A stretch of DNA of 64,000 nucleotides from Escherichia phage A6-6. The position numbers were made by a program, and so were the translations under genes. The notes under the pieces were generated by a model. That model ran no database searches and was not told the origin of the DNA. It saw nothing but the letters and a program-made list of their open reading frames with translations. The DNA is taken from sequence record PQ510734.1. One strand, written 5' to 3'. Shown here piece after piece: positions 14,451-15,366 of the stretch; positions within the stretch are counted from its first letter, which is position 1, and every line of letters begins with the position of its first letter.

Positions 14451-14480
14451 GTTTACATAGGGTTTTAGTTGTGATACTAT
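14451..14480 (+). promoter_or_regulatory. T4-type early promoter
   Basis: GTTTAC at 14451-14456, 18-nt spacer, TACTAT at 14475-14480; conserved leader CTATCAACTAC. Confidence 0.55.
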
Positions 14481-14508
14481 TACCCTATCAACTACTGAGG
14501 AGAATAAA

Positions 14509-14694
14509 ATGAAACGTTGTGAATTAATTCGAAATGTTGCTATTGCAATTTCTGCTTCTGCTTTTAGTTTTTCAATGTTTGTTGGATTTATATGCGGATT
14601 ATTGACTACAGCAGAAAATGTTTTTTCACTTGTAGTAGCATTTTTAATTGGTTTAATTGCTATCGTTATGGATAAAATTTCTAAAGGTGAATAG
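14509..14694 (+). CDS. Hypothetical small membrane protein
   Basis: 61-aa ORF with strong RBS GAGGAG; hydrophobic. Confidence 0.5.
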   Translation: MKRCELIRNVAIAISASAFSFSMFVGFICGLLTTAENVFSLVVAFLIGLIAIVMDKISKGE

Positions 14695-14695
14695 A

Positions 14696-15076
14696 ATGTA
14701 TAAAGTGTATGCGGATTATCAGGCTAATCCATCTGAAAAGCCAGGTTGTCAAATTGGATGGGCTCATGATACTTTGCTTGAAGCAGTAGATGCTGCTCAA
14801 AAATTGGGATATAAATATGTAGAGATTGTTCAACCGTCAGGAAAAGTTATTACTCTTGAAGAGTTCAATAACATTAAACCAAACTTTTTACTTTTTGCAG
14901 GTGATAATTATTATCCTCGTGGTGGATATGCTGATTTAATCGCGAAAGCCGCCACTGAAGATGAACTCCGTGACATTATCAAAGAAAATGAAAACAAACC
15001 AGATTATGGTTCTAATCGCTTTGATTGGTGGCAAATTGTAAATGCAAATACGCATACTATTGTTGATGAAGGTTGA
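14696..15076 (+). CDS. Hypothetical protein
   Basis: 126 aa from ATG 14696 (MYKVYADYQANPSEKPG...), RBS AAGGTGA. Confidence 0.5.
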   Translation: MYKVYADYQANPSEKPGCQIGWAHDTLLEAVDAAQKLGYKYVEIVQPSGKVITLEEFNNIKPNFLLFAGDNYYPRGGYADLIAKAATEDELRDIIKENENKPDYGSNRFDWWQIVNANTHTIVDEG

Positions 15077-15078
15077 TA

Positions 15079-15366
15079 ATGATTCTTTATGCGAAAGTAT
15101 CATCCATTGAAAATGGATATAAATATGATCAAGACGCGGCTAAAGCCTTGATTGATGATTATGGCATTTTAACATATTTTGAAGTTGAAAAGGTTTACAT
15201 TGACCGTTCATCTTCACAAGTTAAATTAGTGAAGGAAGACCGTAAATTTAATACAGTAAATTTTGATTTCTTTATCGAAACAGAAAAAGGTCCTCTTGAA
15301 TATGATATTTTCAAGAATCCTTTGGGTCTTGAATGCATCGTAAATATGTATTATCATAAATGGTAA
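15079..15366 (+). CDS. Hypothetical protein
   Basis: 95 aa from ATG 15079 (MILYAKVSSIENGYKYD...). Confidence 0.45.
   Translation: MILYAKVSSIENGYKYDQDAAKALIDDYGILTYFEVEKVYIDRSSSQVKLVKEDRKFNTVNFDFFIETEKGPLEYDIFKNPLGLECIVNMYYHKW

Follow-up and report, generated by a model that had tools for sequence, protein, structure and literature searches.

The trna.4-trna.3-trna.2 block and the empty internal-protein slot between gene 57B and the tRNA cluster of Escherichia phage A6-6

Genes between 57B and the tRNA cluster

The window analysed here, which is the whole 64,000-nucleotide stretch of Escherichia phage A6-6 DNA (PQ510734.1), belongs to a T4-like phage (Tequatrovirus). The locus under study (Table 1) is bounded on the left by 57B, whose product is identical to T4 57B at 151 of 152 residues, and on the right by a cluster of tRNA genes in the order Gln, Leu, Gly, Pro, Ser, Thr, Met/Ile-CAU, Tyr, Asn, His and Arg. 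Between the two lie a single putative promoter-early stem-loop (PeSL) element and three small open reading frames (ORFs), which are separated by gaps of 1 and 2 nt and each preceded by a Shine-Dalgarno sequence. The 126 residues given for the second ORF are counted from its ATG; the mechanical ORF list uses an upstream TTG and arrives at 139 aa. The ORFs of 43–55 aa on the minus strand of the interval are nested inside the plus-strand genes and were rejected as unsupported. A search of Rfam revealed no RNA family within 14439–15463. An earlier, sequence-only reading of this DNA had described an early promoter followed by ORFs of 61, 126 and 95 aa between 57B and the tRNAs; the coordinates, the spacing and the T4-type promoter motif bear this out.

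Table 1. Features of the 57B–tRNA locus of phage A6-6 and its left-hand neighbours (positions in the window).
Feature	Position	Strand	Remarks
Gene 1 (dNMP kinase)	13028–13741	+	
57A	13741–13983	+	
57B (acb1, anti-CBASS phosphodiesterase)	13983–14438	+	Left anchor of the locus; Pfam Acb1, 2.6e-60
PeSL-type early promoter/stem-loop element (putative), single copy	14439–14508	+	70-nt spacer 3' of 57B
trna.4 orthologue, 61 aa	14509–14694	+	61/61 residues identical to T4 Trna.4
trna.3 orthologue, 126 aa from ATG	14696–15076	+	Full-length alignment with T4 Trna.3, 77/136 aligned columns identical; C-terminal half ~88%, N-terminal half ~30%
trna.2 orthologue, 95 aa	15079–15366	+	90/95 residues identical to T4 Trna.2
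MotA-box middle-promoter-like site, TGCTTTA-N12-TATTAT	15370–15394	+	Regex scan; just upstream of the tRNA cluster
11 tRNA genes	15464–16484	+	Right anchor of the locus; tRNA-Gln starts at 15464; ARAGORN, Rfam

By sequence and gene order the three ORFs are the orthologues of T4 trna.4, trna.3 and trna.2 (UniProt P13322, P13323 and P13324; NC_000866, 72628–73514), and they are conserved genes that anchor the locus on the right and do not belong to its variable content. Their products match phrog_1692 (6e-35), phrog_1411 (2.9e-55) and phrog_2023 (1.2e-47), respectively, and the GenBank record of phage JLBYU22 names the corresponding ORFs tRNA.4, tRNA.3 and tRNA.2. In T4 (NC_000866) the order is 57B, ipI, trna.4 (61 aa), trna.3 (136 aa), trna.2 (95 aa) and tRNA-Gln. 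T4 shares with A6-6 the order and strand of the three genes, the right-hand neighbours (a 97-nt spacer, then tRNA-Gln) and, save for 1 nt, the promoter element, but carries another allele of the Trna.3 N-terminal domain and, upstream, ipI with a promoter copy of its own. Nucleotide identity to T4 is 96–100% along trna.4, falls to 27–58% over 14695–14880, and is 78–91% in the part encoding the C-terminal domain of Trna.3 and 93–100% in trna.2 and the spacer.

A 1025-nt query representing the block matched 839 phage records, 411 of which cover at least 80% of it, mostly at 95–99% identity. Position, order and strand were confirmed to be conserved in phages Lutter, JLBYU22, AugustSocin, PTE-Eco15, WG01 and VR26. 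What precedes the block varies. In Dhakavirus WG01, 57B and trna.4 are separated by three genes annotated as internal proteins and by another small ORF; in Gaprivervirus VR26 the order is ip9, ip5, ip6, trna.4, trna.3; and in a T4-like phage of Klebsiella a single ip gene comes before trna.4, the halves of trna.3 being two separate ORFs. The dN/dS ratios of the three ORFs against their relatives range from 0.00 to 0.41, and every nucleotide difference between the trna.4 genes of A6-6 and T4 is synonymous. This pattern of substitution marks all three as genuine genes subject to purifying selection.

The sequence-only reading had rightly stated that T4 carries ipI beside 57B (NC_000866 annotation), and had placed the three ORFs in that position as probable strain-specific accessory functions. 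That they replaced ipI and now sit in its place, as strain-specific accessory or host-range genes, would accord with their location between 57B and the tRNAs, the site of the variable ip slot, and with their having neither a capsid targeting sequence (CTS) nor an annotated function. It is nevertheless very unlikely, and the annotation of T4 and the alignment with its proteins refute it: T4 possesses all three ORFs besides ipI, directly after it and in the order seen here. The trna.4-trna.3-trna.2 block moreover recurs almost unchanged in hundreds of records and keeps its synteny across Tevenvirinae genera. Both the protein searches, with their matches to T4 proteins and PHROGs, and the synteny comparison at the 57B–tRNA junction, where the block is conserved and the ip slot is the variable part, go against replacement by strain-specific genes; only the allelic N-terminal domain of Trna.3 departs from this conservation. 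As to whether these are conserved core genes of established function, they are indeed present in T4 and conserved, but they are not core genes and have no known function.

The PeSL-type element and transcription towards the tRNAs

The spacer that follows 57B carries TTTCACAAAGTTGTTTACA-N17-TACTAT, which reads as a TTTACA -35 hexamer (14452–14457) and a TACTAT -10 hexamer (14475–14480), with TG directly before the latter. The upstream part of the element is AT-rich (TTTAAAATAATTTCACAAAG), and a GAGGAG Shine-Dalgarno sequence (14497–14502) stands before the trna.4 ATG at 14509. Both hexamers and their spacing agree with TTTACW-N17-TAYWAT, the early promoter consensus of T4 and PST (PMC4122927), which together with an AT-rich upstream region makes up the promoter part of a PeSL. 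On the plus strand the extended early-promoter motif occurs eight times across the window. Scanned with a generic sigma-70 model, the region yielded 10 sites against 8.3 expected from shuffles, no excess over chance; the promoter was therefore called because the extended early-promoter motif of T4 is present and conserved, the A6-6 element differing by 1 nt from that upstream of trna.4 in T4.

A 7-bp inverted repeat, ATAGGGT (14457–14463) and ACCCTAT (14482–14488), encloses the -10 hexamer. The 73-nt PeSL-type element folds with -19.3 kcal/mol (z -3.3), a value equalled by none of 200 shuffles, so that a stable stem-loop, the other part of a PeSL, is predicted for the element as well. PeSLs have been described as recombination substrates by which small ORFs are shuffled within plastic parts of T4-type genomes, and the IP locus has been cited as an early example of shuffling of this type (PMC2839356, PMC4122927). 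In its motif and predicted fold the A6-6 element fits the published PeSL.

In a time-resolved omics study of T4, trna.2 and trna.3 are classed as early both as RNA and as protein; trna.4 is early as RNA, and its protein was not detected (PMC9697503, supplements). From these data and the near-identical promoter, early expression of the A6-6 block would be expected. No terminator-like site was found on the plus strand within 13900–16600, and so none between trna.2 and tRNA-Gln. For T4, PMC2330249, citing Broida & Abelson (1985), reports that most transcription of the tRNA cluster comes from a middle promoter directly before it. In the Lutter record a promoter is annotated at the place homologous to the candidate MotA box of A6-6 (Table 1). 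We infer for A6-6 an early unit of trna.4, trna.3 and trna.2, probably reading on into the tRNAs, and a separate putative middle promoter at this candidate box dedicated to the tRNAs.

Alternatively, the region might be no more than the 5' leader of a tRNA precursor transcript and its reading frames fortuitous, a notion with which the absence of a terminator between the early promoter and the tRNAs agrees, as do the names trna.2 to trna.4, which derive from position beside the tRNAs. We regard it as scarcely credible. The frames are under purifying selection, with trna.4 differences all synonymous; the Trna.3 model obtained with AlphaFold2 is confident; and the Trna.2 and Trna.3 proteins of T4 were detected early in infection (PMC9697503), Trna.2 having also been recovered by mass spectrometry (PMC13275509). 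Detection of the T4 proteins refutes a non-coding nature for trna.2 and trna.3.

Occupancy of the internal-protein slot

The variable element of the locus is the slot for internal-protein (ip) cassettes between 57B and trna.4, and in A6-6 this slot is empty. Genomes in the database hold from 0 to 3 cassettes here, and most relatives of A6-6 have at least one. It is to this slot that the description of the 57B–tRNA stretch as hypervariable and related to anti-restriction applies, and in that form the description holds, in agreement with PMC4122927 and PMC12373910. Each ip cassette is accompanied by a promoter/stem-loop copy of its own, so that direct repeats flank it on both sides, as is seen in T4, Lutter, JLBYU22 and Shigella phage A2. 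In T4 the repeats are 54 nt long, 81% identical and spaced by 367 nt; those of Lutter measure 69 nt and those of JLBYU22 41 nt, and across these three phages the spacing around the ip gene is 300–367 nt. The 57B–trna.4 interval of A6-6 holds no direct PeSL repeat, only the single copy.

Over 15 kb the best match to A6-6 is phage A2 (98% covered, 96.7% identical), which possesses one 300-bp ip cassette. The end-points of the indel between the two genomes fall inside a shared 21-nt repeat, GTGATACTATTACCCTATCAA (A6-6 14471–14491): up to the end of this repeat A6-6 is the same as the first PeSL of A2, and afterwards it tracks the second. Most likely, the slot was emptied by PeSL–PeSL recombination. 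Homologous recombination between the direct repeats would excise an ip cassette of ~300 bp and leave one hybrid PeSL, which would now drive trna.4.

Slot occupancy was surveyed by searching 50,697 phage records with a 411-nt query that spans the junction; 421 records cover at least 80% of it, and the counts rest on the best 60 rows and an evenly spaced sample. Among the 34 full-coverage rows of the even sample, 21 have one cassette (span 705–791 nt), 12 have two (1035–1131 nt) and a single one is uninterrupted. The best 60 rows include only eight distinct uninterrupted genomes. These are vB_EcoM_PTE-Eco15, slur02/04/11/13, vB_EcoM_11B_SA_NWU and vb_EcoM_bov9_1/bov10K1. An empty slot would appear from these counts to be rare. 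The ip-less Tequatrovirus genomes resemble A6-6 in that 57B, a single PeSL and trna.4 follow one another unbroken (97.8–98.8% identity), with identical gene order through tRNA-Gln. They differ from it in their downstream tRNA and homing-endonuclease content, and over the wider region they are not its nearest relatives, the best 15-kb matches bearing a cassette.

The same junction could be read in the opposite direction, the empty slot being the ancestral, unoccupied attachment state and the cassettes elsewhere insertions, with nothing deleted. PeSL mini-circles with single ORFs have been shown for phages RB49 and phi1 and proposed as insertion vectors (PMC2839356), and gain or loss would give an identical sequence junction, which leaves the direction of the event unproven. 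But the closest relatives of A6-6 over 15 kb, among the matches listed, all bear cassettes, cassettes are also found in other genera, and empty sites are rare and scattered. Because of this distribution loss is the more parsimonious and, we suggest, the most economical reading, and an ancestral empty slot is improbable.

Taking the locus as a whole, we put the probability at roughly 85% that it is a conserved T-even early block under a PeSL-type sigma-70 promoter, lying upstream of the tRNAs and preceded by an emptied ip slot. The A6-6 junction would then illustrate cleanly, in a natural genome, how a cassette is lost between PeSL repeats. The ORFs themselves have long been annotated in T4, and variation of the locus through PeSL-bounded ip cassettes is of a known and published kind; public records or papers already contain the genes with their names, the arrangement with an empty slot and the mechanism of shuffling.

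Properties of the three proteins and comparison with known systems

Trna.4 is very hydrophobic (GRAVY 1.22). Hydropathy analysis reveals two segments, at residues ~9–33 and 37–55, with TTAEN between them and charged residues at both ends of the protein, as in small membrane hairpins; we predict Trna.4 to be such a hairpin, with two segments, in the inner membrane. A holin function was considered and rejected: phrog_785 (holin) was matched only at E 0.039 over 35 residues, and the T4 gene is early, not late.

Trna.3 (pI 4.6) was modelled by AlphaFold2 with a pLDDT of 86.5 and a pTM of 0.70. The protein is acidic and predicted to be cytoplasmic; the model shows two small alpha/beta domains, residues 1–58 and 62–126, encoded by 14696 to ~14878 and by ~14879–15073, respectively. 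A sharp mosaic break relative to T4 falls at the boundary between them. On the N-terminal side identity to T4 is ~30% at the amino acid and 27–58% at the nucleotide level, conserved positions being kept. This domain is almost unchanged in Gaprivervirus VR26 (dN 0.05 at dS 1.5; dN/dS of trna.3 against VR26, 0.03), whereas against T4, which is of the same genus as A6-6, dN is 0.35; WG01 has the T4-like type. Since VR26 has the A6-6 type and T4 and WG01 the other, the substitution data resolve the N-domain into two old allelic classes, deeply diverged and crossing genus lines, each under strong purifying selection.

The C-terminal domain of Trna.3 is widespread. A profile search retrieved 359 clusters among 1.84 billion representatives, all unannotated and nearly all stand-alone proteins of 55–100 aa, many of them from phages; they share the signature YLLFAG-x2-YYP-x-GG ... 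DWWQIV. The fold also occurs in BFVD in phages of Salmonella, Staphylococcus, Erwinia and Klebsiella. Neither sequence profile nor fold identified a relative of Trna.3 among solved structures (PDB). An internal duplication in Trna.3 was considered: with hhalign the N-domain did not match the C-domain of the same protein, and its comparison with the broad C-domain family reached 40% probability across 36 columns.

Trna.2, an acidic protein of 11 kDa (pI 4.9), shows dN/dS ratios of 0.0–0.28 against relatives. Its AlphaFold2 model (pLDDT 46.6) was unusable, and a profile search of the PDB found no relative. In a pulldown analysed by mass spectrometry, two phage proteins were enriched with active DRT1 over an RT-dead control, and T4 Trna.2 is one of them (PMC13275509).

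Searches of a local Pfam copy, NCBIfam and PADLOC gave no significant family, known defence and anti-defence families included, for any of the three proteins. Precomputed protein database output for the block proteins contains the accessions PF26870, PF26894 and PF27001. Most likely, the three are non-essential early accessory factors of host takeover or counter-defence that are not injected with the virion. A more specific proposal, that the conserved block may be an early counter-defence or defence-sensing module in which Trna.2 would engage DRT1 and the Trna.3 N-domain would act as a specificity module, is prompted by the DRT1 enrichment of T4 Trna.2 and by the fusion of a two-class N-domain to a widespread C-domain; we offer it tentatively and hold it to be rather doubtful. 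Of the conserved early block adjoining acb1 and the tRNAs, the Trna.2–DRT1 pulldown and the two-allele N-domain of Trna.3 are the two functional leads.

The three proteins begin with MKRCELI (Trna.4), MYKVYAD (Trna.3) and MILYAKV (Trna.2), and the CTS motif MKT[YF]xEF is absent from all three ORFs. A six-frame scan of the window located the motif only in the ORFs at 22011 and 22345. N-termini and scan together uphold the earlier statement that none of the three carries an MKTY-type targeting sequence. The ORF at 22345 matches a PHROG annotated 'internal virion protein' (6e-102); A6-6 still encodes two CTS-bearing internal proteins, at these two positions.

Ip1, Ip2 and Ip3 of T4 are CTS-bearing, injected inhibitors of GmrSD, each acting on one specific GmrSD variant (PMC12373910). 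With them the three ORFs share their neighbourhood and the type of early promoter, but have neither the CTS nor sequence similarity; moreover, the T4 orthologues accumulate early and the Ips late, the latter combining early RNA with late protein, in contrast to the early RNA and early protein of Trna.2 and Trna.3 (PMC9697503). Judged by these sequences, the three ORFs are not Ips. A6-6 would thus have no injected GmrSD inhibitor from this locus. The slot being empty, the phage is therefore predicted to be sensitive to those Type IV restriction enzymes of the GmrSD type which an Ip encoded there would block, a prediction which bears on host range and on the choice of phages for therapy.

The PeSL cassettes described by Arbiol et al. 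2010 (PMC2839356) and Comeau et al. 2014 (PMC4122927) resemble the A6-6 element in possessing an early promoter, an AT-rich upstream region and a stem-loop. In the published PeSL the stem-loop lies beside the promoter, whereas in the A6-6 element it encloses the -10 hexamer. In the relatives of A6-6, as in the published cases, the PeSL is directly repeated around small non-essential ORFs, and the end-points of the indels lie inside the repeats.

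Domains and alleles of Trna.3

Trna.3 is encoded between trna.4 and trna.2. When window positions 14696-14880 were compared with T4, VR26 and WG01, the N-terminal domain was found to fall into two allelic classes, which are deeply diverged and do not follow the division into genera: the type present in the window has hardly changed in Gaprivervirus VR26 (dN 0.05, dS 1.5), while T4 and Dhakavirus WG01 have the other type. The mosaic segment begins precisely at the stop codon of trna.4 and extends as far as the domain boundary.

For the C-terminal domain (14873-15073), 359 clusters make up the family at E <= 0.001; its signature is YLLFAG..YYP.GG...DWWQIV, and no member is functionally annotated. 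Stand-alone proteins of 55-100 amino acids form the majority, and a few members contain an HTH domain. The two-domain model is supported by Klebsiella phage vB_VIPKPNOM02, in which the domains are specified by separate, neighbouring ORFs. Salmonella phages, too, have C-domain proteins that stand alone (P0021 and P0025). In P0022, a 94 amino acid metagenomic protein, the middle of Trna.3 is joined to the C-terminus of the 157 amino acid ORF located 3' of the tRNA cluster, which implies a natural deletion of trna.2 and the entire tRNA cluster in some relative.

Positions of the features discussed
Feature	Genome	Position	Details
57B	window	13983-14438	
trna.3	window	14696-15076	P0022 fusion partner
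MotA-box middle-promoter motif	window	15370-15394	TGCTTTA-N12-TATTAT; between trna.2 and tRNA-Gln
11-bp stem-loop	window	15430-15456	AAGGGTTCTTGCTTAAGAGCCTTT; immediately 5' of tRNA-Gln; without U-tract
tRNA cluster	window	15464-16484	
157-aa ORF downstream of tRNA cluster	window	16873-17346	P0022 fusion partner
Early-promoter motif copies	window	17514, 18072, 18464, 32702, 34403, 45461, 59736	GTTTACA-N-TAYTAT; + strand
CTS-bearing internal-protein gene	window	22011-22328	105 aa; MKTYKEFIAES...
CTS-bearing internal-protein gene	window	22345-22818	157 aa; MKTYQEFITEA...
Split Trna.3	vB_VIPKPNOM02	2729-3093	two ORFs, ~60 aa each, one per domain; phrog_7300 + phrog_1411
HNH endonuclease ORF	Lutter	2542-3150	
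Additional 171-aa ORF	AugustSocin	2435-2950	

57B, internal proteins and early-promoter motifs

57B codes for Acb1, an anti-CBASS phosphodiesterase (Pfam, 2.6e-60), and is a proven counter-defence gene, so that the empty internal-protein (ip) slot and the trna.4-trna.2 block directly adjoin a counter-defence function. Since two CTS-bearing genes are retained at a second ip locus, the phage still has injected proteins, none of them adjoining 57B. The early-promoter motif recurs in seven further copies, four of which (17514, 32702, 45461 and 59736) share the same TTTCACAAA upstream box; these copies are potential recombination partners of the promoter-early stem-loop element (PeSL).

The tRNA cluster and its upstream region

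The stem-loop preceding tRNA-Gln, whose fold is not significant against shuffled sequences (z -1.2), may play a part in the processing or the structure of the tRNA precursor. The MotA-box motif lies at the position matching that reported for the tRNA middle promoter of T4. At the expected place of tRNA-Gln, phage Lutter has an HNH endonuclease ORF, and in AugustSocin an additional ORF lies between trna.2 and tRNA-Gln; no segB homing endonuclease was found within the window's own cluster. This cluster comprises 11 tRNA genes versus eight in T4, the extra ones being Tyr, Asn, His and a CAU-anticodon tRNA which is named Ile in some records.
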